A DNA stretch of 64,000 nt from Amphiscolops sp. MND2022 (lineage: Eukaryota), in assembly GCA_964187785.1 (NCBI GenBank), contig OZ076409.1, positions 20,586,001-20,650,000 of the forward strand, written 5' to 3'. A program made the position numbers and the translations under genes. Each line of letters starts with the position of its first letter. Positions within the stretch are counted from its first letter, which is position 1. The notes beneath the pieces were generated by a model. The model worked only from the letters and a program-made list of their open reading frames with translations. It had not been told where the DNA came from and did not search any database. Positions 18,199 to 64,000 of the stretch are shown here, piece by piece.

Positions 18199-19035
18199 TT
18201 TTTAGTCGGCGCATTTTCCTTTTAAGGAAAAATGCCCGACTCTTACAGTGACCTTTTTTTCTTCAGACTCACACTGATCGGTCCACTTTTTAGAGAAACT
18301 CCTGAAACCACTAAGGCCAAGTCCGGCCAATGCAAACTTAGTGCAAAGGCCCCCCCCTTTCAGTTTTTTTTTACTTTTTTAAGGTAACCTACAAAACCGG
18401 ACGAGACTATAGGGTCCAAAAAGTGTCAGATTCTCACAGATGCTAGCTTTTTTAGTCGGCACTTTTTCCTTTCAAGGGAAAATGCCCGACTATAACAGGG
18501 ACTGTTTTCTTCAGACTCACACTGATCGGTCCACTTTGAGGGAAACTCCTGAAACCACTAAGGTCAAGTGCCAATCCGGCCAATGCAAACTTAGTGCAAA
18601 GGGACTTTCTTTTTTACTTTTTAAGGTAACCTACAAAACCGGACGAGACTATAGGGTAAAGGGTCCCCCCTTTCGATTCTTTTTCGGCATTGTTTTTTCC
18701 GAAATTTTTTAATGCCTCAAAAGGGTCCCCCTTCGAGTTCTTTAAATTTTGCAACTGAATGTATGTTAATAAATCCTAAAGGGTCCCCCTTTTACATTTT
18801 TTGGAACTATACGACATTTCCCAAAAAAAATTCGAACTTTTTTCTAAAAAAAGTTTTTTCTGTTCCCATTTGGAGAAAAAGTTGTTTGCGAGTGATATCG
18901 AGCTTGAAAGGCACTCTTTGGGTGTCTCGAAACTGTTTTCTGAGCTTCTCATAAATACTTCCTGGGCATATTTTAAAAACTTTGCGCTTTTTGAGCCTTA
19001 GATATAGCGCCGACTTTAGACGTTCTCGTCTTGTT
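18199..19035 (+). mobile_element. Helentron/DINE-1-like element, family A (duplicated 5' portion)
   Basis: TTTTTAGTCGGCGC 5' subTIR with adjacent inverted GCCCGACT; 5' ~220 bp present twice (18199, 18448); 3' subTIR GCGCCGACT, hairpin GACG-TTCT-CGTC and terminal CTTGTT; T-rich flanks, no TSD. Confidence 0.8.
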
Positions 19036-19588
19036 TGATCATGTTTTTACTGAATTGTTTTAATATATGGTCGCTGAATGAACTAAATGTTTTCATAAGG
19101 AATTGACTTGCATGTTCTACCCAACAATTATAGTGAAACTGAGTTTATTCCTCCGAAAACATTTCGAACAGTAATGACATTCGGCTGTTTACATTTTTTG
19201 GAACTATACGAAGTTTCCCAAAAAAAATTCGAACTTTTTTCTAAAAAAAGTTTTTTCTGTTCCCATTTGGAGAAAAAGTTGTTTCCGAGTGATATCGAGC
19301 TTGAAAGGCACTCTTTGGGTGTCTCGAAACTGTTTTCTGAGCTTCTCATAAATACTTCCTGGGCATATTTTAAAAACTTTGCGCTTTTTGAGCCTTAGAT
19401 ATAGCGCCGACTTTAGACGTTCTCGTCTTGTTTGATCATGTTTTTACTGAATTGTTTTAATATATGGTCGCTGAATGAACTAAATGTTTTCATAAGGAAT
19501 TGACTTGCATGTTCTACCCAACAATTATAGTGAAACTGAGTTTATTCCTCCGAAAACATTTCGAACAGTAATGACATTCGGCTGTTTA
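18791..19588 (+). repeat. 397-bp near-identical tandem duplication
   Basis: 18791-19187 repeated at 19188-19584 with few substitutions; TTTA microhomology at the junctions. Confidence 0.95.
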
Positions 19589-22500: not shown

Positions 22501-23526
22501 ATCATACAAGAGGCCGAGAACAGCCAATCAGGACGCCAGATAATAATCAACAATCGTTCGGACCTGTTTGAGAATAACGGAACGATAAAAAGTTTCGAAA
22601 TAAATATTCAGTTAAATCCGGGACGCTACCCATAAAAACAGTAAATCCGACCGGTACCACTACCTCTACAAAAAGACGTAAGACGAGAACTAGAGAAACT
22701 GATGTAATACGAACATCTGGAAAAAACAAACGATGTAGACGAAGACTGTTTTGTATCCTCGATAGTAATAATCGTAAAAAGCGATGAATTGGTAAAAATA
22801 GCATCAGAATCACGCAAACGGAAAGATACTTGTATCAAAATGAGACCACACATGCCGAATGTGGAAGCCCTACTAAACCAAGTTGCGGTAGAAAAAACAA
22901 CTCGTCTTTTCGAATATAGACCTGGACTAGGCATACGGAAAAACAAAACTATCTGAAGAAACAACCCGACAAAGCGTTTTCACTTTGACACGGGAAAATG
23001 CAGCCGATACTATACCAGTTCAAAAAGGGTTTTCCGGACTTGCCGACATACCCACACTATCCCAAGGAAAACTGATCGAACACTTGGATAAATCACAACT
23101 GCCTGGTTTGACGACATAATTGTGGTAACACGAGAAAAAAACAGGACCACGAGACAAAAACATTTCACGTCGAAAATAAACTAGAAAAAGCCGGTTAGCG
23201 AGCAAGCTAGAGGAAACCCGAATCCTTCATGAACCAGACAAAGTGATCGGAACACTAAATTGATGAAAACAGAATCAACCCGAATAAAGAGAATGTGGAA
23301 TCCATATTGAAACTAAAGCCACCGGAAAACACAAAAGAGTTGATACCATACTTCGGGGCATTGCAATTTATGGCAAATTGTTTACCGAAACTTTCTTACC
23401 GAACAACAAAATTTTCAGGAAAATGAAACAAATGTTAACCGACCGATGGTCCATGTCCAGCACACAATGCGAAAGACAAAGGTAGCATAGTAACAACAGA
23501 CCACCAAGCATTAGAAATTTCGAAAT

Positions 23527-24003
23527 AACAAAACGAAAACGTCTGAAGTCGGCGCTATATTTAAAGCTGAAAAATCACAAAACATTTTGTGGGAAAAAAA
23601 CTTGAAATTTTTGAAATTTTGTTTTCTTTCGGGAGAATGTCGCATAGTGCCGAAAAATGTACAAGAAGGAATCCCTTTGGATTTATTAACATACATTTTG
23701 TTGCAAAAATTCAAAAAAACTCGTAAGGGGACTCTTTGGGGACAGTTACAAAATTTCGAGAAAAGTCGCACTGTGCCGAAAAAATTCAAAGGAGGACTGG
23801 TCAGGCACGTCCGGCGTTGTAGGTTTCCTTGAAAAAGTAAAAAACGAAAGGGACCCTTTGGACTAAGTTTACCTTGGCCTCAGGTGGTTTCAGGATTGTT
23901 TCTAAAAAGTGGACCGATCAGTGCGAGGATTGTAGTTTGACGAAAAACAGTCACTGCTATAGTCGGGCATTTTTCCTTAAAAAGAAAACACGCCGAATAA
24001 AAA
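23527..24003 (-). mobile_element. Helentron/DINE-1-like element, family A, inserted in the RNase H region of Gypsy B1
   Basis: Plus strand AACAAAACGAAAACGTCTGAAGTCGGCGCTATAT ... TATAGTCGGGCATTTTTCCTT...CACGCCGAATAAAA; host sequence resumes on both sides in an A-run. Confidence 0.85.
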
Positions 24004-24242
24004 AACAAACTGGTGTATTAAACCATGCAGCGCGAGATAACCACAGTGGTTAGACGTAATTCGATGTATCAATACAACTTTTTGCCGGCAGTATTTCGAC
24101 ATTTACCGATTATCTCAGCAGAAATCCGGTAGCTGGGGATTACGATGAAGAAAACGTAATTAACATAATACCCGAACTAGTTGAATTGAACTTGAAATAC
24201 GGACCAATCTTCGCCGAACAATCAAAACGCAACAAAGAAAAA

Positions 24243-27062
24243 CATAGGCGCGACGGCATGTCGCGCTTGGTCACGAGCAGAAACGTTCAATGGTCTGCAG
24301 AAGGTGTTACCAATCCTTTGTGTTCCAGGGCCCACAACCTTGTGAATTGATCGAGTCTCAGATGAGGATATTTTGATGGAAGAACTGGAAAAATGAAGAA
24401 AATTTTTTTTGAGTCAAATGAAAAAATGTATTTTTGGCAGAAACCCGAAGACGTCATACTTCATGACGGAAACTTTGATAGTACAAAAAATAGCCTACAT
24501 ACTTGCCTCACTTTGTGAGGGAGAGTGGTTTTCGTATCTATTTCCAGTTCGGAGCAAAATCAGCTACAAATTGGAAAAAAAGGAAAAAATTCAGAAAAAA
24601 ATTTTTCATTACTTTATTTGCTAAAAAAATCCAGAGCGAACAAATTTCGACATCATTTTCAGCCTAAAACGTAGACAACATAAGCCTCGTAAAATTAACG
24701 AAACCATGAACCCAATATTTGGTCTCGGTCATGAGATATACGAGCTCAAGTTAAAAAGAACCAAGATTTTTTTTTGAAAAAAATTGAAGTTTTTTTTGGC
24801 AGAAAAACGAAGGCGTCATACTTGATGACGGTAACTTTGTTGGTCCAAAAAGTAGCCTATATATGCTGTTTTTCTCGAAAGAGAACAGTTTCTGCTTCTT
24901 TTATCAGTTTTGAGAAATATGAGCTACGAACGAGAAAAAATTTTTTGAAAAATTTTTTGTCACTTTTTGCCCAAAAACACTAAGTATGAAAAAAAACTTT
25001 TGACGTCATATTTCAGCCAAAATGTAGCCTATAAAACGCTTGTACAATGTACGAAACCATGGACATTGTATTTGGTCTCAGTTCTGAGATATAGGAGATC
25101 AAAGATGAAAAAACTGTCGAAAATAGCGTTTTTCCAAAACTTTTTGTGAAAAAACCCATGGAGCCGAATTTTTTTCGAAAACATTTTTCGACCAAAATTT
25201 AGCCTAGGATCCTGCGCAATTTTTAGCGAAAACATGATATCCGTATCTGTTCTGGATTTTGAGAAATTTGCCTCACAAGTTTGAAAAATTGGCACATGTC
25301 GCGAATTCTGCGAAAAAAAACATAGGCGCAACGGCATGTTGCGCTTGGCCTCGAGCAGAAACGTTCAATGATCTGAAAAAGGTGCTAAAAATTGTGTATA
25401 TCCCAGATTTCAAAACCTAATGAACTTATCTAGTCTCAGATCAATTAAATTTAGATGAAAGAACTAAAAAGAAAGGTGAGAAATTGAAGTTTGAGAAAAA
25501 TGAAAATTGTAATTTTAGCAGAAAAACGTAGGCGTCAAACTTGATGACGGAAACTTTGATAGTACAAGAACTAGCCTACAGCTTTGCATAACTCTGTGAG
25601 GGAGAAGGGTTTTCGTATCTACTTTCACTTCTGAGAAAAATCAGTTACAACTTGGGAAAAGTGGAAATTTTTCGAATTTGTTCTTCATCCATTTATTTGC
25701 CCAATAATACCAGAGCGAAAAAAATTCGACGTCATTTTTACCTTTAAACATAGCCTACTGAACCCTCGTACAAATTACGAAACCATGAACTCCGTATTCG
25801 TTCTCGGTCCAGGTCCTGATATACAGGATACAGATATACAAGCTCAAGTAAAAAAGAACTGAGAAACTTTTTTCAAAAAAATCAAGTATTTTTAGCAGAA
25901 AAACGAAGGCGTCATACTTGATGACGAAAACATGATTGGTACAAAAAAGCCCACATCCTTTCTATTTGACTTGAGGAAGAATGGTTTCTGTATTTTCGTC
26001 AGTGTCGAGAATTATGAGCTACGAATGAAAAAAAAATTTTTCATCCTTTTTTTAATGAAAAAGCGCAGTCGGAAAAAGTTTCTGACGTCATTTTTTAGCA
26101 AAAAGGTGGCCTACAAAACGCTTGTATTATATACGAAACCATGGACCCTGTATCTGGTCTCGGTTTTGAGAAATAAGGGAAGAAAGATGAAAAACTCTTT
26201 TCAAAAAAACCATGAAGCCGAATTCTTATTGAAAATTTTTTTCGACGAAAAAGTAGCCAAGGATTCTACCCAACTTTTGGCTAGGACAAAGGTTTTTCAT
26301 ATCTCTTTTCAGTTCTGAGGAAAATCAGTTACAAATTATGAAAAAATGGGAAAATTTTCAAATTTCTTCTTCATCCCGTTATTTGCCCAGAAAAACCGGA
26401 GCAAAAAAAATTCGACGTCATTATTGGCTTAAAACGCAGCCTACTGAGCCCTAGTACAAATTACGAAACCATGGACTGCGTCTTTGTTCTCCGTCTTGAG
26501 ATATAGGGTCTCAAGTATAAAATGAATAGGAAAAGTTTTCAAAAAAAAGTATTTTTAGCAGAAAAACGAACGCGTCATACGTGATGACGGAAACTTTGTT
26601 GGTACAAAACCTCGCTTACATCCTTGCTGTTTGTCTCGAGGGAGAATGGTTTCTGTATCTTTCGTCAGTTTTGAGAAATATGACCTACAAATGAGAAAAC
26701 AATTTTCGACTTTTTTTCATTTTTTTTTGCCTAAAAAACCAAGTCTGAAAAAAATTTTTGACGCTTTTTTTGGGCGAAAAGGTGGCCTATGAAACGCTTG
26801 TAAATTACACGAAACCATGGACTCTGTATTTGGTCCTGGTTCTGAGAAATAGGGGATCAAACATAAAAAACAGTCAAAACTTCTTTTTAAAAAAAACCAT
26901 GAAGCCGAATTTTTCTCGAAATTTTTTTTCGACGAAAATTTAGCCCAGGAACCTGCGCAACTTTTAGCGGAAACATGGTGTCCATTTCTGTTATGGGTTG
27001 TGAGAAATTTGCTGCACAAGTTTGAAAAGTTGGCACATGTCACGAAATCAGCGAAAAAAAAA
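24243..27062 (-). mobile_element. Head-to-tail dimer of a rolling-circle-type element (family C) with internal ~360-bp subrepeats, nested in Gypsy B1
   Basis: Unit boundary CATAGGCGC(G/A)ACGGCATGT(C/T)GCGCTTGG at 24243 and 25321 (first unit 1078 bp); both units end ...GGCACATGTC.CGAA.TC.GCGAAAAAAAA; GC-rich hairpin at the minus-strand 3' end; subrepeat GCGTCATACTTGATGACG recurs ~24450, 24815, 25530, 25910, 26575; inserted in an A-run without TSD. Confidence 0.7.
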
Positions 27063-30000
27063 CGTCAACATATGGGCACCTCGCAAAGCTCGAGCCCCAA
27101 AAAAACGTCACCATATGAGCATCTCGCAAAGCTCGTGCCCTCAAAAAGCAGAATTACGTAACGACAACACCGAAGCATAAAATGAGTATAGAAAGAACCA
27201 TTCATAAAGGAGAAGATTTTTCGAGAACAAGAACAACGTGAACAAAACCAAACAGAGCGAAACAACAGCATACGTGCGGCCTGATATTATCACTCCAAAT
27301 TCCAGCCGCAAATTTTTGGAAGAAAATTTTGAAAACATTGACCGCGATAGCTTAAACCACCCACTGGGGAGCCATCTGTGAATTTATGGATATTGGATGT
27401 CGTAACAATAGTCCAGTAGCACGTGGAAAATTAGTGGAGCAGAGAAACGCACAATCCGGTCGCGGAATTCTGAACGGCCGTTGTGACCACGAACCTCAGC
27501 GAGCGGTTTTGAATCATCCCGGCCAAACAAAAGAACACTGGAAGAGTTCGCTGAGAACGATGTCGAATATATATGACGAGAATATAGACAAAATGTGTAA
27601 AAGAGTTTAGACAAAACAGTAAAAACTGGAACATAGAAATCGAATATTGTACGCCACGAATGCAAACTGGAAAGGAGTAGTAGAACGAACAACCAAGACT
27701 TTAAAGAATCTGGTACTTGCAAACATGGAAGATGGTCAACGTTTAACCGGAAGCATAAACCGAGCATTACGAGAGTAATGTCATGCACCGTACACACGGG
27801 ATTAAAAGCAACGCCCTTCGAAAGAGATCACGGAAGGAAAACGAGAACTGAAATAACAAACATCAATAGAGACGGTAAAACGTATTTATCTGATTGGTCA
27901 TAATTTTCCGTTTTAGAACCAATAAGGCCAAAGATACCAATCTATGTGTGGCGCGAGGCGGAGGATGAATATACAAACCATATAGTTATGGTCAGAACCA
28001 AACTGGAAGACGAACAATTATCGGAAGGACCGAAATCTCACAAAAAACTTCGGTTGTCTATCCTTCATCTTTGAAGAAAAAACCGCAACAAAAAATCTTT
28101 AGAAGGATAATTCCAAAATAAAATACAAACCGCTACACGCAGAACCGAGAATACCGTAAACCCAAATACCAAGAAAACAAAGTCCGAAAGTTGTTCATTT
28201 CGAAAGCCTATTACTTTAGATCGAAAAGAAAGTGAGGCGTGAAAAAGAGACACTGAAGAAAGAGACTGAAAAAGAGACACGGTGGTTAGACGGTAAGTAT
28301 GGCCGGTGGGACGAAATCCTCCAGGACATACTCAACGAAAAACTAAAAAGAGCGCAAAACTGGGAGAAGACGGACAGGGACACAGATGATTATTATGATG
28401 AAGATGATGAAGTTGATGAAGATGAAGAAATGCCGGAGATGACCGGTAGACCAGCATACGAAACTTCCAAACGGGACGGCAGGTACATTCCGATACAAAC
28501 GAATCCGGAAGATGATGCTATACAGATCCGTACCGATGAAGAAACATCGGGTTAAAATCTCGAACCTATATTAGAACTGAGTAGATACGGTAGTGTACCC
28601 TATGCAGGAGACATCTGAGGCTAAGAATGAAAGAAAGAAATTTTCATTTTTTACTGTTACTTTTTACTGTCGCTTTTTCATTTTTTACAGGTACAACGTG
28701 GAACCGACATAAAGGGACGCCCCAACCGGTGACGATACTGAAGCCGGCAGTCTTCTTTCCTAGTGATCCGGATTTGACACCACCCGGAACATCAGCAATT
28801 ACCGCATCCAAGATCCTCTTCAACTGAGCCAAGAAAACTGAGAAGTCGAGAGAGGGGAATGTTATACAGTTCATGCGTTTCCTTGACCTCTATCGAGCTT
28901 CTGTTCCTGAACGTTAGTCTAAAGACTATAAGACTTGTTACTAAACAAACTCAAAGAGAACCTAGATTAAACATAATCATTTCGTAATACAGTACGAAAT
29001 TAGAAAGTCTATATTTTAAACTCTTTTCTCTCTCCTAGTGTCTTAGTCGTAGTTTACAACCCCAATAACAACTGTCTTGTTAAAATTGAAAAACATTCTC
29101 GAAACAGAACTCAACCAAATTTTAAGTTTGTCAACAACTAGGTTCGGCAAACTTTTTAAGAGGTGACACTATATCGCACTTCCCTGACTAACTGGTTTTC
29201 GGTTATCTCTAACATTAGTAGTTTTTGACGTCAGTCAAAATTTTGTGTAATGAAAAGGAATAACAAAGTTTGGACTTGTATTGGGGTTTTTCTTTGGATC
29301 ACTGCGCAATCTTTCTTGTTTTGTCAAATATTTTATGTTTCGGACGACAATGTCCATAATCAAATTCTCCGTCTGTTCGCCTCAAAGCCAGGTTCGCTGG
29401 CGTTGAGAAAACCCGTTTATCGCTTCTGTTTGCTACTGTTTTCTGGAGAAAAACTTGAATCTGCCTAATCTGCTCTGTTTCTGAACATTTTTTTCTCTGT
29501 CTTTATTTTGTCCTTCAGTATCACTGTCTCTGCCCCCATACATGGAATTTTGTCTCCGGAGCAGAGTTTTGACATTCCTAATTTTTAAAAATCAAAATCG
29601 CTATTTCGCTGAAAATCTTTTTCTTTAAAGTATTAAACGTTTGAATTCAAAAATGTTTTGAATATAAACGATAACCTAATTCAAATTTTGCCTTATTTTG
29701 CACCCTATTTTGACCTCAGTAAGTGTTGGACTAGGAACAGCACGTTTTATCAACCTTCGGAAAAATTCAAATGAAAAGAAGAAACATGAAAAGAACCCCT
29801 GAGAGTATTTCGTTCGTTTCTGTATTTCAAAAGCCATTTTCGCTCTTGAAAACAGGTGCTGTTGTGAAAAATGAGTTTTAATTTTCTATATCAAGTGCTA
29901 ACGCTAGGATTCAGTCGTAACAAGAAACAAAACAAGAATTATTTGAAATTGTCACCAAACAATTTTAAATGATGAAAAAACAGTCGAAAAAAATTGATTA

Positions 30001-32499: not shown

Positions 32500-32713
32500 T
32501 GTGGTAGGTGCTAGAAAACTAACATTACATAACCTAATGCTTATGTGAGAAAATCAATAGTGTGAAATACTTTATTACGTAACATAGTAACAACCTGCCA
32601 AATTATGCCAAAGTGGCAAAATAACAACAATTGCCATAAAACAGAATACCGTTGAATTTACAGTTGCTATCATATTCTTCTTTACTTCCACTCCTGAGTC
32701 GTAGACGTTTACA
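32500..32713 (+). repeat. 5' LTR of Gypsy A
   Basis: TGTGGTAGG...GTTTACA; differs from the 3' LTR at one position (T32538 vs A37735). Confidence 0.98.
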
Positions 32714-35700
32714 TGGCGCTGCGAGCAGCTGACGATGATCAATCAAATGCCCCAGTCCCTGGACTGAGTTACTTCTGGCAAGATGCCGAAAAATCCCCTT
32801 CATACGACTGGGATCAATGGCTGCAACTATTTGAGGTAGCAGTGTTGGCCCGTCACTCAATTTCTGTTTCCGAATTGACAAGAAATGCAGAACAACAACC
32901 CCGGGCCCAAGCACTGATGGGAAACATGGAGGAAGCCCCTGCAGCAAGAAAGGTAATCAGCTTATTGTACATATCATTGGGAAAAACGGGCAGAAAAATG
33001 CTCATGGACAAGTTCCCCCAGATTAATATCTTACTGATCCAACTACAACAATTCCTCCAATTTTGTAACGAGTGTTTCCAAATACGTCGAAACAGAACGA
33101 TGGACAAACATACCTTCTTGTCACGAAAACAGAAGCCATCGGAATCACTACACCAGTACTGGAACGTCCTCAATGGGTTAGCAGCCAAATGTGACTTTGG
33201 TAATCAAACAGAAGGCTTGGTGTACGATGTGTTTGTACTGAATATGGCAAATAAGCAGGTACAGGAGAAGCTGTGCACAGAGCCGAAAGAGACCCCGGCA
33301 GAGGCATTACAGTTCGCCATAGCATTTGAAGACGGATTGAAAAGACAGAGAACATATGGCTACATCGGAAACGAGACGAAAATCAAAGAAGAACCAGTTT
33401 GTACAATAAGTGGTAATCGACAGAACACAAAAGAATGCTGGAGATGCGGTGCCGGTAATTTTACAATGGACCACTTGAAATTCTGTAAAGGACCAAATGC
33501 GACATGTAATTACTGCGGCAGAAAAGGCCACTTGGAGAAAGTTTGTAACCAAAAGAAAAAGGATAATTTACAGCAAAGTGGTAGATTCAGAGCAAGTGGC
33601 AGTAGTGAACAAATAAACCGCCGCGTCCGATTGGTCGATCAGGAAGAAGAAGAGGATGACGATAATTTCTTGGTTTTGAATATAGATGGCCAAAGCGAAA
33701 ACGTAAAACCGTACTACATGGAAGGGTTTATTAACGGAAATCGCTTCAAAACAATGATCGACTCAGGTTCGCCAGTAACCATTTTTGCGCTAGATGAAAT
33801 TAAACAGATCATGCAAAGAGAAAAATTACAAGTGCGTCAAATGATCAAAGGCGAACGGTACGTGGATTTCAACGGGAAGCCGTTGAACTTACTGGGATAC
33901 GTTTTCTGCGAATTACAAGTGGGGGACCAATACATTAAAAAGGCAAGAATTCTAGTCACAAAGAGCGGTACAAAATCGATCATCGGCAGAGAATGGTTGT
34001 CAACGTTGAAATATACAATTGCCCCAGCTAACAAAGGTGAGTGTGAAGTTAATTCAATTGAAAAAGAAGAAGAACTAAGTACGGAAACCAAGCAATTTTG
34101 TAATGATTTTCCACAACTGTTCAAAAGAAATGGGAAGATAAAAGATCATGAAATCAAAATAAAGCTAAAACCGGACGCAAAAATCACGCAACAAAAAGGG
34201 AGACGAATCCCAATTCAACTACAAAACGCGGTAGATGCGGAAATAAAACGATTACTAAAAGAAGGCCATATAGAAAAAATTAACGAAATCAAAGATGACG
34301 TATTTATACAGCCAACGGTAATAACAGTGAAGAAAGACCGTTCAGTAAAAATTGCGTTGGATGCAAGAGCGCTAAATCAAGCCATTGATAAAGATAAATA
34401 CCAAATGCCGAACCTCGATAATTTGTTAGACATGGTGGCTGAAAAGCTAGATAATGAAGAAGGTGAGGCATGGTATTCATCAGTCGATATGACTTACGCA
34501 TACGGTCAAATTCCACTACATTCGCTAACAGCGAAACACTGTAATTTTCAAATTATTGGCGGAGAATCGACGGGGACGTACCGATTTGTAACAGGTTTTT
34601 ATGGTCTGACGGTTATGCCGACAGAATTTCAAAAAGTAATGGATTTGTTATTAGCAAAATTTAGAGAAGTGTTTGTCTTTATCGATGATATTTTAATTGT
34701 AACCAAGGGAAACAAAGCTGAACATTTGAACAAAGTGCGGGAAATTCTAAAAGTGCTAGATAAAGCAGAATTACAATTAAAGGCGGGAAAATGCAAATTT
34801 GCTAAACAAGAAATCGAGTGGTTAGGGTTCAAATTGACAAATTCGGGCATTTCGCCAATAAATTCGAAAGTACAAGGAATTACAGAAAAACTCAGACCAA
34901 CGAATTTGAAAGAACTAAGATCGTTCTTAGGCGCAGTGAATCAATTCAACAGATTTGTCCCAGATTTGGCTACAATTTGCTTTCCATTCCGTTCAATTTT
35001 AAAAAAGGAAGCTAATTGGGAATGGAATGAAGAACACGAAAAAGCATTCAAAAGAATTAACAAAGAAGTGAGAAAAGTCGCGGAATTGACGCATTTTAAA
35101 AGAAACAAAGAACTGAGAATAATATGCGACGCCAGCAAACAAGGATTAGGCGCGGTACTTCAGCAAAAGGAAAAAGAAGGGTGGAAACCAATTTCATACG
35201 CGTCAAGATTTTTAACTGAACTAGAAGCAAAATATTCAATAAACGAACTAGAGTTAGTAGCCGTAGTCTGGTCAGTGGAACATTTTAAAAATTACGTGTA
35301 CGGGATAAATTTCGGAGTAGTGTCAGATCATAAGGCGCTACAGAGCGTTCTAAAGTCGAATAAAGGAAACAAAACGTATTCAAGTAGACTCACAAGGTGG
35401 GTGGATAGACTCCTTCCTTTCGATTTCAATGTAGTGCATGAACCTGGCAGAACCTTAGGTTTAGCAGACTATTTGTCACGCCATCCTTCCGAATATAATG
35501 GTTCAATTCTAAAAGCGGAAGAATTGTTTAATAATTGGTTTACGATAAATGTGGTGAAAGAAATCGTCCCAACATTAAATAGAAAGTCAGCAAAAGAAAA
35601 TGAACCAATCAGAAGCGAGGAAAGTTTTGGAAGAACGAAATTGGCAAACAAGAGTGTGCTAACAATTCACCAGCCTACGCAGTCGAGCGTAAATTGTGAA

Positions 35701-37374
35701 CAAATAAACAAAACGCCAATTAACGCAGAAATGGCGAATGATCTAGTCAATTCAAAAATCAGCCAAGTTTACGTAAAGGCTAATTACGAAAATGACAAAA
35801 ACATTCAAAAAATTATTCGTTTAATAAAAAAGAAAGATTCGTCTGTAATTGCTCGACTACCGCCCCCGTGGAGGGAAAAATTCTCATCATTTAGCTTAGA
35901 TTCTCAAGACCTACTTTATATGGATCAGAGATTAGTGATTCCAAAAGATATGAGAGAGAATGTTTTACGCGCTATCCATTTCGGCCACGCAGGGAGAGAC
36001 GCGATGCTACGGGAAGCGTCAGACGTATGGTGGCCAAGGATCCATAGAGAGATCATGGAAAAAGCAAAAAGTTGCGTGGACTGCCAAAATGCAGGTAAGA
36101 ATCTTAAATGTCTAAAGAGTCAAAAAGATTTTGGAAAACTACCGGAAGCGAATCAGCCTAATGACGAAATATCCTTAGACTTTGCTGGCCCATTTCAAAA
36201 TGAAAGAAAACAGAAAAAGTATTTGTTAGTCTCGGTCGATAATAATTCAGGTTGGCCGGATGCAATGTTTTTACCAAACCCAACGGCTGAAAAGGTAATT
36301 GAATTCCTGTTAGAGTACATTGCCAAAAATGGAATTCCGAAAAGAATACGGACGGACCCGGGAACAGTGTTTACGGGGGACAAATTCAAAGCATTTTGTA
36401 GAGAAAAATTCATTCAACACATAGTATGCCCAAGACGTGACCATAGAGGAAATGGGAAAGTTGAGAGAATGATTCGAACAGTAAACGAAAGGCTTAGAAC
36501 AAATAGAAACATAATTGTTCAAAAGGACACAACGGGAATATCAAATATATTATTTGCGCTAAGATCGGAAAAGGGAGCGGACAACAAATCAGCTTTTGAA
36601 AAGCAAATGGGTAGAACACCAAATACATTAAAATCTGCTATGATAAGAAAGTGTATTTTAGAAGAAGACCCAAAGCTCCAAATCGAACCCGAGGACTTCA
36701 GCGAAGAAGGCGACTCAACAATTCTCGTAAGAGAACGCGTGAGAGGTACCAAACTCGAAGGAAATTTCAAAAAGATGAAAGGAAAGGTGACCGCTGAAAG
36801 TGAACACACCATCACAATCCAGCCGAAAGCCGGAAAAACAACAATACTGTCCAAGCGAGATGTGGCTAAAGTAAACGAAGGAGCCAGCACAAGCGCAATG
36901 AAACAAAATGAAGAAACCAGCACGAGCGCACAAAAGCCATTTAAAGCAAAGAAAGCAAAGAAGCAAAAAGTGGCAGCGGCAAAGAAAAAGCCAGTCTGGG
37001 AAGAAATAGCAGAAAGGGAATTCTTTCGAGGCAGACTCGCATCAAACGAGGGCGAAGAAAAAGAAGAACAAACTGAACCAGAACAACAAGAAGAAAGTGC
37101 TGAAGCAAATAGCGCAGACGAATCAACAATACCGGCAAATGAAGAAAAAGAAATGAAGACAACGGAAAGCATGGAAGAAGAAGAAAAGAACAAAGAAAAG
37201 AAAGTACCCGTGAAGGGAAAGATAAAGTGGGAGAAAGTAGCGCAAAGAAGTTCAACGCGAACCCAGAAAAAGCCTGATTGGCTAGGAAACAACATAATGG
37301 TCACAAAGATCGAACAGGAATCCAGCGTAGGAGAAAGTCTACCGAGCGTATACGAAATACCTCCTCCTCAATAG
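32713..37374 (+). CDS. gag-pol: Gag-Pol polyprotein (1553 aa, single ORF)
   Basis: Two Zn knuckles (CWRC-x8-H-x3-C, CNYCGRKGHLEKVC), protease IDSGS, RT (DMTYAYGQ, FYGL, FIDD), RNase H (CDASKQGLGAVL, NELELVAVVW, SDHKAL), integrase HHCC (HFGH...CVDC) and D-D-E (LDF, TDPG, VERM), acidic/Lys-rich tail ending RSSTRTQKKPDWL. Confidence 0.97.
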   Translation: MALRAADDDQSNAPVPGLSYFWQDAEKSPSYDWDQWLQLFEVAVLARHSISVSELTRNAEQQPRAQALMGNMEEAPAARKVISLLYISLGKTGRKMLMDKFPQINILLIQLQQFLQFCNECFQIRRNRTMDKHTFLSRKQKPSESLHQYWNVLNGLAAKCDFGNQTEGLVYDVFVLNMANKQVQEKLCTEPKETPAEALQFAIAFEDGLKRQRTYGYIGNETKIKEEPVCTISGNRQNTKECWRCGAGNFTMDHLKFCKGPNATCNYCGRKGHLEKVCNQKKKDNLQQSGRFRASGSSEQINRRVRLVDQEEEEDDDNFLVLNIDGQSENVKPYYMEGFINGNRFKTMIDSGSPVTIFALDEIKQIMQREKLQVRQMIKGERYVDFNGKPLNLLGYVFCELQVGDQYIKKARILVTKSGTKSIIGREWLSTLKYTIAPANKGECEVNSIEKEEELSTETKQFCNDFPQLFKRNGKIKDHEIKIKLKPDAKITQQKGRRIPIQLQNAVDAEIKRLLKEGHIEKINEIKDDVFIQPTVITVKKDRSVKIALDARALNQAIDKDKYQMPNLDNLLDMVAEKLDNEEGEAWYSSVDMTYAYGQIPLHSLTAKHCNFQIIGGESTGTYRFVTGFYGLTVMPTEFQKVMDLLLAKFREVFVFIDDILIVTKGNKAEHLNKVREILKVLDKAELQLKAGKCKFAKQEIEWLGFKLTNSGISPINSKVQGITEKLRPTNLKELRSFLGAVNQFNRFVPDLATICFPFRSILKKEANWEWNEEHEKAFKRINKEVRKVAELTHFKRNKELRIICDASKQGLGAVLQQKEKEGWKPISYASRFLTELEAKYSINELELVAVVWSVEHFKNYVYGINFGVVSDHKALQSVLKSNKGNKTYSSRLTRWVDRLLPFDFNVVHEPGRTLGLADYLSRHPSEYNGSILKAEELFNNWFTINVVKEIVPTLNRKSAKENEPIRSEESFGRTKLANKSVLTIHQPTQSSVNCEQINKTPINAEMANDLVNSKISQVYVKANYENDKNIQKIIRLIKKKDSSVIARLPPPWREKFSSFSLDSQDLLYMDQRLVIPKDMRENVLRAIHFGHAGRDAMLREASDVWWPRIHREIMEKAKSCVDCQNAGKNLKCLKSQKDFGKLPEANQPNDEISLDFAGPFQNERKQKKYLLVSVDNNSGWPDAMFLPNPTAEKVIEFLLEYIAKNGIPKRIRTDPGTVFTGDKFKAFCREKFIQHIVCPRRDHRGNGKVERMIRTVNERLRTNRNIIVQKDTTGISNILFALRSEKGADNKSAFEKQMGRTPNTLKSAMIRKCILEEDPKLQIEPEDFSEEGDSTILVRERVRGTKLEGNFKKMKGKVTAESEHTITIQPKAGKTTILSKRDVAKVNEGASTSAMKQNEETSTSAQKPFKAKKAKKQKVAAAKKKPVWEEIAEREFFRGRLASNEGEEKEEQTEPEQQEESAEANSADESTIPANEEKEMKTTESMEEEEKNKEKKVPVKGKIKWEKVAQRSSTRTQKKPDWLGNNIMVTKIEQESSVGESLPSVYEIPPPQ
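32714..32728 (+). promoter_or_regulatory. Primer binding site (tRNA-Ser type)
   Basis: TGGCGCTGCGAGCAG immediately after the LTR; complement CTGCTCGCAGCG-CCA resembles animal tRNA-Ser 3' ends (recalled, not searched). Confidence 0.8.
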
Positions 37375-37688
37375 CAGCAAAAACTGAAAACTGAAACTCA
37401 TTAAACATTCCCGAAAGCTTGATAACTCAGGGCTTACTTATAGTTATTGCCATTGTCATGTAATCTGTAATCTTAAACCCAACCCGCAGTTTGAGTTTTA
37501 AAAGAACTGGTGTTGTAGTAACATTTGTTCAAAAATTGTTAATTGTGTTTTTAGTTGATACGTATTATCATGAAAAAAGTAGCAATCTGTAAAAGTATTG
37601 GCTAAACGATGGACCAATCACATAACAACGTTAATGTAAACGTAATTAAAGTTCATTTGTACAAAACCCCATGACCTTCATTAATACC

Positions 37689-37696
37689 GAGGGAAG
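37689..37696 (+). promoter_or_regulatory. Polypurine tract of Gypsy A
   Basis: GAGGGAAG directly abutting the 3' LTR. Confidence 0.8.
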
Positions 37697-37910
37697 TGTG
37701 GTAGGTGCTAGAAAACTAACATTACATAACCTAAAGCTTATGTGAGAAAATCAATAGTGTGAAATACTTTATTACGTAACATAGTAACAACCTGCCAAAT
37801 TATGCCAAAGTGGCAAAATAACAACAATTGCCATAAAACAGAATACCGTTGAATTTACAGTTGCTATCATATTCTTCTTTACTTCCACTCCTGAGTCGTA
37901 GACGTTTACA
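37697..37910 (+). repeat. 3' LTR of Gypsy A
   Basis: 214-bp direct repeat of 32500-32713, followed by TSD TGCGT. Confidence 0.98.
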
Positions 37911-38185
37911 TGCGTGCTTCAAAGCAGAAAACAGTGGATTTGAATCCCGCTTTCAACGGCATTTTTTCTTCATATTCAAAACTATTTTTAAATTTTTTTA
38001 TAGTTAAACTAAATAAACTGTGAGATTACACGTTTTTTCATGCAGTGGGTCATTGTTCGAACTTTCGAAGTGCATTGCCGACTGTCAGACTGTCATCATT
38101 AAAAATCTCAAACAAAAAATCGTTCATCGTAACATGAAAATACAAATGTGGAAGTTCTCCTTTAAATTTTCTCGGTATTGGGCAA

Positions 38186-54068: not shown

Positions 54069-57000
54069 TGTTACGATTCATCCACTTTAGTGACCTCTAC
54101 CGTAATTCGGTTCATGAACTCAGTCTGAAAATACAGACAGTACGAGTTGTATGTAAAAAAACTCACAAAACAACTTAGCCTACTTACATGCATCTATATA
54201 TACATTCTAGATTTGTATTTGATCGAATACAGTTGTATAATTGAAGCATCATACATTTTATATCTTTTCCCTATCGTTCTTAAAACCTTAACCCTAGAAT
54301 AGAACATGGCGCAGTCAGCCGAATTTTAAAACAATACAAAATTTTAATGGCTGAAAAAATCGCAGTACCGAATCTAGAGGCAAAGGCCGGAGACGGAAAC
54401 CCGGTATTCACACCGAAACAATGGTTGGAACGATTCCGGCAATTCACGAAACGGGAACATAAAATAGATATCACACCATTGATAGAAGGAGAAGAAGTCA
54501 CAGAAACCGGATGGACCGGGAAAGAGAAATCTATCCAGGAAGATTTTATCTGGGGAGTGGGACCCGAAGCACTGTACCAAATTACTCGAGCCGAGTATAA
54601 AACGGATCCGGACAGTATAAAAATCAAAGATTTGATTCGATTATTCCTCGAATATTACTCACCGAAACGCAACACCTACCACAACCGCGGAGATTTCTTT
54701 TGGGCGAAGCAGACAGAAGAGGAAACACCCGAAGAATTCTGGAGAAGACTGATCGAAATAGAGAAAGAATGTAATTTTAGCACAATCACAGCTGAAGAAT
54801 TACTAATATCCAAATTCATGACAGCGATCACCGATAAAAGACTACGGGACAAATTGATGAAGGAAAAAACGTTGGAACTGAAAAAAAAACGAGCGAACTA
54901 ATAAAACAGAACACCTACGAGAAGAAGAACACGAAAAACACAATCCCGGAAGCACTAATCTCGACAAAAGAAAAGCAAGCGATAAGAGAAGAAGCAATAC
55001 AAAGAATGGAGAGATTCGGTACAAGACCGAAAAACAGAACAACAACAAATAGACCGTGTAGATGTTGCGGGATGCAAAACTGGACACCAACGCATAACTG
55101 TCCAGCAAATGAAACGAACTGCAACAAATGCGGAAAGAAAGGACACAACGCAAAAGTATGCAGACAAAAACATACCAACAACCGAACAGTGAAAAAACTT
55201 ACCGAAGAAGAAACAGAAGACCGAAGTGAGACATCAAGCGAATCAGATGAAAGCATACACCACATAAAAGAAATAAAGAAGATCGAAGAAGAGAACAAAC
55301 ACTATACGGCAACAGTTAAAATAAACGGTATAAAGGAGGAATTCATACTTGATACCGGATCACCGATAACAATAATGCCACCGGACGAAAAAATTCTAAA
55401 ACTAATTGAACTACAGAAAATCACAAACAGATACCAAGATGTAAACAAAAATGAAGTGAAATTCCGTGGAAAAATACCGATGAAAGCAATACGAAAGCAA
55501 CAAACAAAAAATGGAAATATTGATAACCGAAAGAACAGACATAACACTTTTACTCGGAATGGACTGGATGAAGAAATTTATATTAACAATCGGAAGAATA
55601 CAACTGGCCGATAACAACCAATCAGAACGCGAGAAAGTGTTCAACAAATTTCCGGACTTGTTCGAAAACAATGAAACGATAAAAGACGCCGAAATAAACA
55701 TTCAACTGCAGTCGGGACACTATCCGGTAAAACAAAAAGCCAGACCGGTACCACTACATCTACAAAAAGATGTAGGGCGTGAAATGAAAAGATTAATAAA
55801 ATCCGGACATTTAGAAAAAATCAATAACGTAGATGAAGATTGCTTTGTTTCACCAGCGATCATAACAGTAAAAAGCGACAATTCAGTGAGAATAGCGTTG
55901 GATTCGAGAAAACTGAACGACAGCTGCATCAAAATGAGACCCCACATGCGAATATGGAAGAACTGCTAAACCAAATTTCGGTAGAAACCACCCGGGACCG
56001 AAAACTACAATTATTCATCTCCAAAATAGATCTGGATTACGCTTACGGTCAATTGAAATTGTCGGAAGAAACAAGCCGACAATGCGTATTCGCACTAACC
56101 GGAGGAAACTTCAGCGGATACTACCGATTTACGGACTTGCCGACATACCCAGAATATTTTTGGAAAAAATTGACCGAACACTTGAATATTGCACACCGGC
56201 ATGGTTAGATGACATAATCATAGTAAAACGAGGAAGCAAACAAGATCACGAAAAGAAATAATTTGACGTGTTAAATAAACTGGAAAAAGCCGGGTACTGT
56301 GCAAGTAAAAGAAAGTCTGAATTCTTCATGAACCAATCAAAATGGTTGGGACATGAGATCGATGAAAACGGAATTAAACCGAACGAAGAAAAAGTGGAAG
56401 CAATACTACGGTTGAAACCACCGGAGAACACAAAAGAACTAATTTCATTCCTCGGAGCAAAACAATACGTGGCGAAATTCTTACCGAAGCTTTTGGAGCG
56501 AACAGACAAGCTGAGAAAACTACTGAAAAAAATGAACCATGGATATGGGGAGGAAAACAACAAAAAGATTTAGAAAAGATAAAACAAATGTTGACCGAAG
56601 GACCATGTCTAGCACACTATGCAAAAGATAAAGAAAACATAGTGACAACAGACGCTAGCACAACCGGTCTCGGAATAACACTATGGCAAAAACAACACGA
56701 TGGAAACACAAAACCGAAGCATTCGGTAGCAGATATTTGAACGACACCGAAAAGAAATACTCAATCGGTGAATTGGAATTACTAGCAGTTGTATGGGGCC
56801 TAGAAAAATTCCGATTCTACCTTTACGGAAAGAAAGTACATTTGTATACAGATCATCAAGCGTTAGTACCACTAATTAAACGGAACCGGTGTAATAAACA
56901 ATACAGTGCGAGACTAACACGGTGGTTAGACCGATTAACACATTTTGATATATCAATCCAACATATCGCCGGTAACAATTTGAAATTTACAGATTATTTG

Positions 57001-59716
57001 AGAAAAAAAGGGGGAGCCACGCCGGAAGAAAATTACGATGAAGAATACGTAATTAACATATTAACCGAACACGCTGAATTGAACTTGAAATACGGACCAA
57101 TATTCGCCGGCCAATCAGAACGCACCGAAAACAAAACAAAATTACAACCCGAGAAATTATGGACATAATTCGACGCCGAAACAATAGCCCGGAGACAAAG
57201 AGGCTAATCGAACAGAGAATTGCGCTGTCTAGACCGGGTACCCTGAGACGCCGGTACGACCACCAGAGCCAAAGAACGATATTCGCACCACCTCGGCCAA
57301 ATAAAAAAAGCCGAGAGGAAATTGCGGAAATCGATGTTGAACTGATGAGAAGATCAAACAGACTAGGCGGAGGTTATCAACTGCTACAAGAAGAGACCGA
57401 AAACAATCCGGAAGAAGGAGAAATCGAGCAAGAACCGGAAGATACGAAAAAAGACAGCATAATAATGCGCGGAGACAATTTACCAATTGTAAACTTATCA
57501 AGTACAATACGGAAGGCAAAGAGGCCAAGTACATACAAATTAACCACATCGTGAGAAATTTGACAGCGAACAAGAAAATAACTGAAGACAACATTAAAAA
57601 AGCGGAGTTCGAATTTATGCTGGATTTGAAGACATTAATTTCAAAGACCGCATAGATCCGGAACTAACTCGCGTCAGAACAAGCATGAGAAGAGAGGACC
57701 GAGAAACCGCACCAGACGGATACAAACCGGTATTTGAAAAGTTATCTATCCGATGGGGCCTTGTATTCGTCGATGACCAGACAGTTGTACCAATCGACCT
57801 AAGAAGAAGATTACTTGATATCCTGCATTTCGGCCACTCCGGAATGACAAAAATGGAGACCGAAGCCAAACTCTTTTGGTGGCCGGAGAAGAAAAACGAT
57901 ATCAAGACAAAAGTGAAAGACTGCACCGCCTGCCTCGCATCAGGTAAAAATTTAAAATACCAATTACCGAAAAAAACACTACGGAAAACTAGAAACATTA
58001 ACTGAACCCCGACAAGAATTACAAATCAATTTTAATGGAAAATTACATAATAAAAACATCCACGGAGATGTACAAATACTAATCGCTATAGACAGACTTA
58101 GTAGATGGCCAACCGTAAAAATTTGCAAAACTTCGGAGACAAAAGAGGTAATACAATTCTTATCAAGCAATTTCAACTTATACGGAATACCAGAAAAAAT
58201 CAAATCAGATAAAGGGGGCGCCTTTATCTCAAAAGAATACCGTGAATTTTGCAAAAACCGAAATATTGAAATCAAATATTGTACACCCTGAATACATACG
58301 GGAAACGGACCAGTAGAACGAGCAATCCAAACACTAAAAAACCTAGTAATAGCAAATATGGAAGACGGAAAAAATTTAACCGAAAGTGTAAATCGAGCTT
58401 TACGAGTAATGCGATTCACCGTACACACGGGATTAAAGAAAACACCTTTCGAATTACATCACGGAAGGAAACCGAGAACCGAATTACCAAATAACATTAA
58501 AGACGGTAAAACATATCTATCCGATTGGTCAGAACTTTCCAATTCAGCACCAGCACGGCCGAATATTCCGATTAACGTTGGCCGCGATGCGGATGGTGAA
58601 ATCACGAACCACATCGTGATGGCACGGACAAAAGCAGAAGAGACACAAGCAATCGAAGGATTGAATTCACTGAAGAAGAAAAATTCGGTTAGCTATCTTT
58701 TCAAATTTGTAGAAAAGAACCACAACAAAAAATGTCTTGAAGGAAAATTCCAAAACAAAATCCAAACCGCAATAAGCGGAACCGAAAATACTGTGAAAAC
58801 AGACGCGGGAAAAATAATAAGCCAAAAATTTATTTCGGGACCATTATTTCAGACCGAGAAGAAGTTGAGGCGGGAACAAATACCGCTAACGGACAATGAA
58901 ATCCAGCCAAAGAACAGACACTGTCTACTGGGGCTGGACGGAAAATATGGCCGCTGGGATGAAATCCTGCGAGACATACTCAACGGAAAATTAAAGATAG
59001 TGCAAAACCGGAAAAAGACGGAGGCCGATACCGAAGAAGAAGACGACGAAGATGACAAAGAATAGCCGGCAACAACCGAAAGATAGACATATGACACATC
59101 GGAACGAGACGGCCGATACGTCCCAGTGCAAACCAATCCGGAGGATGATGCACTGCAACTCCACACCGATGGAGAAATACCGGGTGAGAATAAAAGTAAT
59201 AACATAATTCGGCGCTCTAACCGAAATGTAGTTAAACCGAATAGATACGGTAGCATACCATACACCGGAAATTTCTGGGGATAAATAACTAAAATATGTT
59301 TGTTACAGAACCATCGTGGAACCGACATAAGGGAACCCAAAACCTGACAACATACAGAAACCGGCGGACTTTATCCCCAGTGACCCGGAACTGACACCAA
59401 ATGGAACACAAACCATGTCAGTATCAAAAACCCTCTTCGATTGGACAAAAAGATCTAAGAAGGAGACAGAGGCGGAAATGTTACGATTCATCCACTTTAG
59501 TGACCTCTACCGTAATTCGGTTCATGAACTCAGTCTGAAAATACAGACAGTACGAGTTGTATGTAAACAAACTCACAAAACAACTTAGCCTACTTACATG
59601 CATCTATACATACATTCTAGATTTGTATTTGATCGAATACAGTTGTATAATTGAAGCATCATACATTTTATATCTTTTTCCTATCGTTCTTAAAACCTTA
59701 ACCCTAGAATAGAACA
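54069..59716 (+). mobile_element. Ty3/Gypsy LTR retrotransposon, family B (copy B2), both LTRs present but coding-defective
   Basis: 238-bp TG...CA LTRs (54069-54306, 59479-59716; 3 substitutions), TSD GCGGT (54064-54068 / 59717-59721), PBS TGGCGCAGTCAGC (54307-54319, tRNA-Ser-like), purine tract before 59479; appears inserted in a family-A element. Confidence 0.97.
54347..59284 (+). pseudogene. gag-pol: Fragmented gag-pol of Gypsy B2
   Basis: Successive ORF fragments give Gag, Zn knuckles (CRCCG..HNC, CNKCGKKGHNAKVC), protease LDTGS, RT (DLDYAYGQ, WLDD), RNase H (TDAS, ELELLAVVW, TDHQAL) and integrase (HFGH..CTAC, SDKG); about ten frame changes plus in-frame stops. Confidence 0.93.
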
Positions 59717-60439: not shown

Positions 60440-60617
60440 ATGTTTGACAACTTCTTGAAGTTCATCCAGAGTCTGAAGGAGAAACGGTACAGTGGGCTGG
60501 GGGACAGACTCAACTATTACTACACACCCTACATCTTCGGGGCTCTCGCCATGGCAGGCACCTTCACAAACTACGTGGAGGACCCACTCGACTGCTGGAC
60601 ACCTGAATACTTTACAA
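60440..60617 (+). CDS. Innexin (gap-junction/pannexin family), first coding exon
   Basis: MFDNFLKFIQSLKEKRYSGLGDRLNYYYTPYIFGALAMAGTFTNYVEDPLDCWTPEYFT matches the innexin DRLNYxxT-TM1-YxxxP(I/L)xCWxPxxF pattern; GC-rich codons; phase-1 donor A|GTAGGT at 60618; later exons not found in the window. Confidence 0.92.
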
Positions 60618-60918
60618 GTAGGTTTTTCATATAGTCGACCAAAACCCCCTCCCTCCGGCATGGCCTATTCGCTGCTTTGCCGACAACACAGTCCATTACC
60701 ACAAATAACTCAAATTAATCGGATCTATCTTGACCTTCTTGAATTTCGATGTTTTCGGAGTTATCCATATTTCAATATTGGGAAGTTTGTGAAATAACGT
60801 AATTTGAATTAAGATTAGTACAGTTTAGAACTTTTCTGTTTTTTAGCTTTCTAAAAGAGAGATCACTCATGTGATGGAAAGGAGATGAATAAGGATATGA
60901 TAGGATAAGTGATGATAA

Positions 60919-63420: not shown

Positions 63421-64000
63421 TGTTATACGGTGCAATACCGTGTCCGAATTTATTCGGTTCATCAAGTGCCAATCAAAAACAGACTGTTGAACAACAAAGT
63501 ATAATTGTTCCTATTTTTGTTGATACATATTTATATATACATATGTATGTTAGATTAATCTTTTGGAACCATTGTTGCATAGAATTGATATAGAATATAG
63601 TTTGGCACAAAGATACTTTAGTACTGCAATTCATCTTTTTAATTTACCAAGTGGAAATACAACATGGCGCACTCAGCAAACTAACTTATTTCAATTCTGA
63701 CGAAACAAAGAAACAATGACACAAGAAGCAACACAACTCGAGGTACCGAACTTCGAAGCAACAACAGACGGAAAGAAAATCTTTACACCGAAACAATGGC
63801 TTGAACGATTCCGGCAATACACAAAACGGAAATACAAAACGGACATTGCGGAACTAATCCGGGGCGAAGAAATAACACAAACAGATTGGGCCACGAAAGA
63901 AAACCAGGTACAAGATGATTTTGTATGGGGTATTGGCCCAGAAGCTCTATACCAAATGACAAGAGCAGAATACAAGACCGAGCCGGACAAAATCGCAATC
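63421..64000 (+). mobile_element. 5' end of a third family-B-related Ty3/Gypsy element (copy B3), truncated by the window
   Basis: Putative LTR 63421-63664 (TGTTATAC...TACAACA), PBS TGGCGCACTCAGCA at 63665; predicted TSD GGTAG. Confidence 0.88.
63716..64000 (+). CDS. gag: Gag N-terminus of Gypsy B3 (open to window end)
   Basis: MTQEATQLEVPNFEATTDGKKIFTPKQWLERFRQYTKRKYKTDI...DDFVWGIGPEALYQMTRAEYKTEPDKI, colinear with B2 Gag (FTPKQWLERFRQFTKR, WGVGPEALYQITRAEYKTDPD). Confidence 0.9.
   Translation, partial: MTQEATQLEVPNFEATTDGKKIFTPKQWLERFRQYTKRKYKTDIAELIRGEEITQTDWATKENQVQDDFVWGIGPEALYQMTRAEYKTEPDKIAI

Follow-up and report, generated by a model that had tools for sequence, protein, structure and literature searches.

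Does a retrotransposon in the genome of Amphiscolops sp. MND2022 carry a coding exon hidden behind the stop codon of its pol gene and, if so, to which protein does this exon belong? To our knowledge, the pol of LTR retrotransposons is usually regarded as intron-free. A sequence-only reading of the locus had proposed a spliced exon, under coding constraint, that would continue across the polypurine tract (PPT) into the 3' LTR. The DNA analysed, hereafter the window, is a stretch of 64,000 nucleotides (contig OZ076409.1, positions 20,586,001 to 20,650,000 of the forward strand), and positions given without a prefix are those of the window.

The element and its family

The exon belongs to element B2, whose LTRs (54069-54306 and 59479-59716) are 98.7% identical and flanked by the target-site duplication GCGGT. 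TG..CA LTR ends, a PBS, a PPT, and a short target-site duplication, the hallmarks of Ty3/Gypsy elements, are all present in the B2 family. In relatives of B2 the Pfam domains follow the Gypsy order (PR, RT, RNase H, HHCC, rve), and the best PDB matches of the integrase are the PFV and Ty3 integrases. There are natural copies with an uninterrupted frame of about 1,760 codons; without splicing, the element reads from gag through pol in this single frame and terminates in a basic tail. The copies in the window are as follows.

54069..59716, + strand: element B2, decayed, Ty3/Gypsy-type, recognized by its LTRs, its target-site duplication, and Pfam domains in relatives
28551..28827, + strand: older copy B1 with an equivalent layout (donor 28551, acceptor 28690, exon 28691-28827, final TGA)
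63421..64000, + strand: 5' end of family B3, a relative; its 3' end is found past a nested insert, outside the window

A terminal coding exon behind pol

59309..59444, + strand: terminal coding exon with a KPADF motif, 44 codons in the window's subfamily and 35-44 elsewhere
59459..59478, + strand: polypurine tract, downstream of the exon stop and non-coding

The splice signals described by the sequence-only reading, i.e., the donor CGG/GTGAGA at 59183/59184, the pol stop TAA at 59282-59284 inside a 125-nt intron, and the acceptor TTACAG/59309, are all in place, and the homologous exon that it saw in B1 is present behind the acceptor at 28690. We fetched 119 natural copies via DNA, protein, and pattern matches, a sampling that favours those with the exon still present. 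Of these, 106 have a YAG acceptor and 113 start the exon with G. Homology between copies begins at the acceptor, and the exon start is preceded by AG at 139 genome matches, compared with 0 for a reversed control.

The proposed coding constraint was confirmed. In 14 copies, which are hand-chosen subfamily representatives whose pairs are not independent and whose dS is near saturation, the first 23 codons of the exon have a dN/dS of 0.10 (pS 0.70, pN 0.17); the values for four other frames are 1.2-1.9. A further set, of 12 copies, gave 0.12 for the exon. The two alternatives to coding that had been named, an antisense frame and an RNA structure, were also checked: the codon-aligned antisense frame gave 0.27, and the RNA of three out of three exons folds no better than shuffled sequences (z -1.0 to -1.4). 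The 15-residue hydropathy is below 0 in three exons. The hidden exon is real.

Its extent had been overestimated. Rather than remaining open across the PPT into U3 as a module of 75-90 aa, the frame ends upstream of the PPT in 95 of the 119 copies, after 35, 43, or 44 codons, with TAG, TAA, and TGA interchanging among copies, and its real length is 35-44 codons. In the window copy the stop position (59442-59444) reads TGG and one base is missing near 59336-59338; B1 has TGA at 28825-28827, the same place as the stop lost in the window. The downstream frame that had been read as 'FxDLYRxSV' is broken in most of the closest loci (27 of 30), whose U3 lacks one base relative to the window's subgroup. 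Since the window copy lacks both the stop and one base, B1 keeps its TGA, and most close copies differ in U3, the reading into the LTR is an artefact of the window copy. Retroviral nef and sag are U3-overlapping ORFs that form small 3' accessory coding regions; unlike them, the exon stops upstream of the PPT and never enters U3, and the likeness that had been drawn to them falls because exon size and U3 overlap were both wrong. The absence of an initiator ATG was not confirmed for the window's subfamily, which has one in frame five codons upstream; across the 119 copies, however, an in-frame ATG on that side occurs in only 49, and in 3/22 of one subfamily group. The CTAA taken for a branch point is found in only 38 of the 119.

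Intron-less genomic copies as a record of splicing

Because LTR elements replicate via RNA, we searched the 1.07-Gb genome, in which the window is part of contig C1, for copies without introns. Pattern and protein searches followed by DNA checks yielded 16 loci from which one or more of three segments, termed I1, I2, and I3, are missing at GT-AG borders.

C6:29.60, C3:53.90, C1:69.85, C5:58.36, and C9:22.70 Mb: I1, I2, and I3 absent (5 loci)
C13:45.10 Mb: I1 and I3 absent (1 locus)
C9:2.54 Mb: I2 and I3 absent (1 locus)
C1:25.19 Mb: I1 and I2 absent (1 locus)
C8:56.86, C7:35.15, and C13:17.51 Mb: I2 alone absent (3 loci)
C11:11.69, C2:56.66, C13:49.30, C2:26.04, and C6:39.85 Mb: I3 absent without loss of I1 or I2 (5 loci; C6:39.85 Mb is the less certain call)

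In the window copy, these introns and the exons between them are laid out as follows.

57944..58547, + strand: intron I1, phase 1, 603 nt when undamaged and 604 here; absent at 7 of the 16 loci
58548..58687, + strand: exon I1-I2, 47 codons in the pol frame, with a basic SPKKK stretch at its end
58688..58852, + strand: intron I2, phase 0, 165 nt; absent at 10 loci
58853..59183, + strand: exon I2-I3, about 111 codons in the pol frame, with an acidic run
59184..59308, + strand: intron I3, phase 1, 125 nt; absent at 12 loci

All joins preserve the pol frame and lead into the exon of 35-44 codons. Several show a one-base substitution, that of I3 in the tandem pair at C3:53.90 Mb is 2 nt short, and some joins of older copies were assessed against relatives of just 71-85% identity. 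Two spliced loci retain paired LTRs and target-site duplications (99.1% identity, GTATC; 97.0%, ATTAC). The first spliced copy, with two LTRs and a duplication, lacks I3 and also 603 nt whose borders are the equivalents of 57944 and 58547, and is read through both joins as far as the exon in a single natural frame, 1,038 codons long; RT, RNase H, and HHCC were detected there by Pfam, but no rve. The second lacks I3 and 165 nt that match 58688-58852.

Few copies are spliced (2 among the 145 places that match the exon-start pattern), and intron-less copies reveal only RNA that was packaged. A search for the exon start after GG or TG gave 6 matches, as against 7 for the reversed control, consisting of 2 spliced copies and 4 AG-to-TG changes; a further pattern search gave 9, of which 3 were spliced (two being a tandem duplicate) and 6 were point variants. 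Thirteen junction candidates were fetched, 11 of them spliced and 2 unspliced. In addition, at least 8 protein relatives in the database span a junction; these may partly be identical loci from another assembly and were left out of the count of 16.

The losses have occurred repeatedly. In a tree of the I2-I3 exon with 57 rows, from which 9 others (1 spliced) with short or missing alignment were left out, the 15 spliced rows require at least 10 independent origins, and a single clade is rejected (p-AU 5e-6). The ends of I1 share a microhomology of 4 nt (TCAG), and the I1 join taken alone could be a template jump; at I2 and I3 the microhomology is 1-2 nt, and the many other deletions among copies avoid the intron borders. 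I1, I2, and I3 have been removed at GT-AG borders, singly or jointly, from RNA extending from LTR to LTR, which subsequently underwent reverse transcription and insertion, and their exact GT..AG loss in RNA-derived copies marks them as spliceosomal introns. The RNA of the element loses three in-frame introns by regulated or partial removal, and the terminal exon is read in the pol frame.

The proposal of the sequence-only reading that the donor at 59183 joins the exon in the pol frame, replacing the RRSxR..KP tail of integrase, is borne out by 12 intron-less loci. As an account of the splicing, the alternative tail swap was incomplete, as there are two further in-frame introns and in the spliced form seen most often the catalytic core is missing as well. 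A direct join from 57943 to 59309, which had been suggested as well, gave 0 matches to a strict pattern; the partner of the 57943 donor is 58548. At the 3' end of B3 beyond the window, proposed as a place to check for the same acceptor and frame, the acceptor is present, the set of six splice sites is complete, and a KPADF exon of 29 codons has its stop upstream of the PPT.

Two groups of copies deserve separate mention. C11:11.69 Mb (L302) and C2:56.66 Mb (L303) are sister copies (support 100/95), 88% identical, from which only I3 is absent, and possibly stem from a lineage whose fixed tail is the exon and that transposed in this form. All three sampled copies of one subfamily (L300, L305, and L306), which was sampled through junction candidates only, are without I2, by either inherited loss or repeated splicing, whereas a similar database protein, P0024, keeps it.

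Introns as integrase modules

Each intron, when retained, is one module of integrase, and its removal cuts that module out while the zinc finger stays. I1 is the entire catalytic core (residues 281-481 of the 727-aa integrase region), with D309, D369, and E405 of the DDE triad all inside it. I2 is a strand-rich segment (residues 529-583), which we infer to be the SH3-like domain of the integrase C-terminus, and I3 comprises the basic pol tail RRSNR..KPNRYG and the pol stop. The I1 acceptor is kept in 27 of 28 aligned copies; in the same 28 no conserved donor was found after gag or PR, at a threshold that also missed the weak I2 donor.

The arrangement has left a footprint at the codon level. 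Only 2 of 68 Gly columns are GGT in all 12 copies, and they are those at the two phase-1 donors. GC3 is 0.44-0.50 in exon parts versus 0.29-0.31 in intron parts in all four copies tested, a contrast that survives amino-acid matching (p 0.0002-0.0004). By part, dN/dS is 0.04 in an Arg-rich domain that precedes integrase, 0.09-0.10 in the shared exons, and 0.12 in the terminal exon. Since purifying selection acts on every part, introns included (0.04-0.16, apart from 0.37 in the retained pol tail), the retained and the spliced forms both matter. Selection on the shared exons is equally explained by full-length integrase; the terminal exon alone is unique to the spliced forms.

The predicted product and its possible roles

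A fully spliced message would encode an integrase-derived accessory protein without the catalytic core. This triply spliced form, of about 470 aa, would consist of the Arg-rich N-terminal domain, the HHCC zinc finger, the basic stretch, the acidic stretch, and the new tail, and on the sequence patterns described above we consider that such a core-less accessory protein, made from spliced RNA, is probably the selected product.

The Arg-rich domain has 19 Arg in its first 85 residues. In the triply spliced frame HHCC is the sole Pfam match, two ESM Atlas queries gave no usable match, and by hydropathy (at most 0.97 over 19 residues) the spliced protein is free of transmembrane segments. The structures predicted by AlphaFold were of low quality (mean pLDDT 47 and 64), and the best hit of the Arg-rich domain in a fold search (Z 4.4, rmsd 5.9, 83 aligned) is not meaningful.

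As a separate observation, integrase carries an N-terminal extension of ~170 aa (L177:4025-4570; window ~57159-57600), made up of an Arg-rich helical part, a beta-hairpin, and an acidic linker. This extension has a dN/dS of 0.04, is absent from family A, a second Gypsy family in the window, and has no Pfam, Atlas, or fold match.

The spliced protein would bind the unspliced RNA of its element and help it to escape from splicing or to leave the nucleus. Such a role in RNA handling, like that of CERV for the element Cer1, is tentatively put forward as the most likely job. It is favoured because the element has three working introns and yet must deliver unspliced RNA, and because the retained domain is Arg-rich and lineage-specific; resting on Arg content and analogy, it is a lead. 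As in CERV- and Rev-type systems, the element RNA is multiply spliced (5 triply spliced loci). Pfam, Atlas, and fold searches, the last with weak underlying models, revealed no likeness to CERV or Rev in sequence or fold.

Other explanations of the spliced copies have to be weighed against a core-less accessory protein. The selected product could be a full integrase in which removal of I3 only swaps the basic tail for the exon, altering targeting or nuclear import, with I1 and I2 splicing as by-products. I3 is indeed the intron most frequently absent (12 of 16 loci), the two sister copies that lack I3 alone and keep the core fit a working tail-swapped integrase, the retained tail is less constrained than the exon (0.37 against 0.12), and integrase C-termini are described as bearing localisation and targeting signals (bioRxiv 2024.04.02.587720). 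However, a tail swap is improbable, as it leaves unexplained the invariant GGT donor of I1, the I1 acceptor in 27 of 28 copies, the drop of GC3 within I1 and I2, and the triple-spliced class (5 of 16 loci). Alternatively, the core-less protein might be a self-repressor whose zinc finger poisons integrase multimers, or splicing might divert RNA from integrase in some tissues. The product would be identical to that of the accessory reading and only its role would differ; the removal of one integrase module by every intron while the zinc finger stays is in keeping with it, and the somatic P-element isoform provides a precedent (bioRxiv 2023.05.27.542554). Repression is conceivable but unlikely, since removal of I1 alone would suffice, and neither a new conserved tail nor an Arg-rich domain at dN/dS 0.04 would be called for.

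Splicing could also set stoichiometry, so that an element with a single ORF makes less integrase than Gag, PR, and RT, the tail merely capping the protein. Both the continuous gag-pol frame of natural copies (about 1,760 codons) and the existence of full-length RNAs in spliced form would suit this idea, and copia and BARE are described as splicing for Gag (PMC3735527). Nevertheless, RT and RNase H are retained, so there is no excess of Gag over Pol; no donor is conserved behind gag or PR in the 28 aligned copies; the frame is kept at all joins though a stop would suffice; and a mere cap would not require a dN/dS of 0.1, all of which makes this explanation very improbable. There is scarcely any probability that the exon is not reached by splicing at all, being instead a free 49-aa ORF that starts at the upstream ATG, a product of readthrough or frameshift, or an RNA structure, or that deletions by chance produced the intron-less copies. 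Some subfamilies do have an in-frame ATG, gene callers give ORFs of 49-53 aa, and I1 has its TCAG microhomology, but the upstream ATG is confined to 49 of 119 copies, homology begins at the acceptor, three of three exons fold unremarkably (z -1.0 to -1.4), the microhomology at I2 and I3 is 1-2 nt, three exact losses coincide at 5 loci, and other deletions fall elsewhere. This explanation is largely refuted by the intron-less copies.

A candidate internal promoter

57111..57161, + strand: remnant of a putative internal promoter and conserved ATG (CCAATCA at 57111, ATG at 57159)

The core-less protein would probably also be made from an internal CCAAT/CAGTC promoter in the linker between RNase H and integrase. 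The ATG at 57159 opens the Arg-rich domain before integrase, and most of the linker is deleted in the window copy. The linker has a dN/dS of 0.58, i.e., weak protein constraint, yet its synonymous divergence is low (pS 0.33); upstream of the ATG, 42 of 53 linker-bearing copies have two CCAATC boxes and 45 have GCAGTC, and GC3 steps up from the ATG onward. In family A the same motifs occur in a different codon frame. Against a promoter, the CCAATC boxes occupy one codon frame within the B2 family (CAA TCA, Gln-Ser) and may be protein-driven, and the two complete spliced copies examined keep gag-pol as far as the zinc finger and so lend it no support. No splice acceptor is conserved before the ATG of the Arg-rich domain. 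Judging from the motifs, we lean slightly towards an internal promoter in the linker. A third CCAATC, which likewise speaks for protein-driven boxes, is present in 12 of 12 copies near the PR-RT border (element ~1325, window ~55617) and may reflect either a codon effect or a second promoter.

A more elaborate possibility, which we regard as rather unlikely, is that the lineage is a complex retroelement in which the integrase gene forms a second transcription unit, with a CCAAT promoter and three module-bordering introns, and yields either full integrase or a Rev-like regulator, tail-swapped integrases being a third, transposition-competent form. Encoded in the same frame, the regulator would then unite the HHCC finger with an Arg-rich domain that is new and a terminal exon of its own.

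Comparison with known spliced elements

CERV of Cer1 is the closest known case. Cer1, a Gypsy/Ty3 element of C. elegans with no stop between gag and pol, is described as having a five-exon CERV mRNA that joins peptides common to Gag to an exon behind pol, and the resulting protein of 517 aa as being required for export of Cer1 genomic RNA (PMC10309623). The B2 lineage resembles this system in its multi-exon spliced message, in the union of polyprotein-frame peptides with an exon behind pol, in a predicted non-Env accessory product, and in the splice sites that remain in the genomic RNA. In contrast to CERV, which uses pieces of Gag and a large last exon and has a function shown, the pieces here are from integrase, the last exon has 35-44 codons, and the product is predicted from genomic copies.

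Splicing is reported to favour Gag in copia and BARE, and to take place between ORFs or across rt in Ogre and CRR (PMC3735527). As in these elements, partial splicing of the RNA changes the proteins made by a single-ORF LTR element. However, in those cases pol is removed or frameshifted, or the splice lies between ORFs, whereas here RT is kept and three in-frame introns excise integrase modules. Tor elements are described as expressing env from promoters within pol (PMC4402516), and sORF2 of MDG1-group elements as a transmembrane protein (bioRxiv 2025.03.14.642691). Unlike these two and errantivirus env, the present product has no transmembrane segment and no conserved ATG of its own, and its exon is fused to integrase sequence.

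The P-element repressor derives from less spliced RNA. In both systems the element's own recombinase gene is alternatively spliced to give a non-catalytic isoform (bioRxiv 2023.05.27.542554); unlike in the P element, a DNA transposon, the active enzyme here requires that all introns be retained. According to the same long-read study in Drosophila, the spliced cases described before it were P, gypsy, and copia. In the literature searched, as far as its texts were accessible, the spliced products of LTR retrotransposons are Gag, Env, and the Gag-derived CERV, and nothing there describes in-frame introns within the integrase of a Gypsy element, subscription papers, Repbase, and preprint supplements lying outside the search.

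Spliced accessory mRNAs of LTR retrotransposons are already known, and what is new is that integrase itself is modularly spliced. This splicing spans subfamilies near saturation at synonymous sites as well as family B3, and it offers a route to an accessory gene that needs no new DNA past about 40 codons. It opens to test how an element with three working introns delivers its unspliced RNA. Intron-less genomic copies and GC3 steps together map retrotransposon splicing without RNA data, an approach applicable to any repeat-rich genome.

Other features of the window

Family A (32500-37912) has one frame of 1,558 codons. It contains three phase-1 donors (34037, 34463, and, directly after the zinc finger, 36095) and a phase-1 acceptor at 36661 that with the third donor delimits 567 nt, in frame and bracketing the catalytic core; CCAATCAG and GCAGTC lie upstream of an ATG at 35731. 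Two pattern searches of the genome gave 0 matches to intron-less copies of family A, which on these sequence features may be of the same architecture as the B2 lineage.

B1 is broken up by unrelated repeats at 23500-27200, including a degenerate array (24235-27061) with units of several hundred bases, and B3 is split by an insert of ~6 kb just outside the window (C1:20652-20658 kb) that holds an 825-codon open frame with no Pfam match. A tandem duplication of ~400 bases with 99.3% identity occupies 18791-19588, and an innexin exon (PF00876, E 1.7e-6), which marks the host as an animal, is located at 60440-60619, ~720 bases downstream of the 3' LTR of B2.
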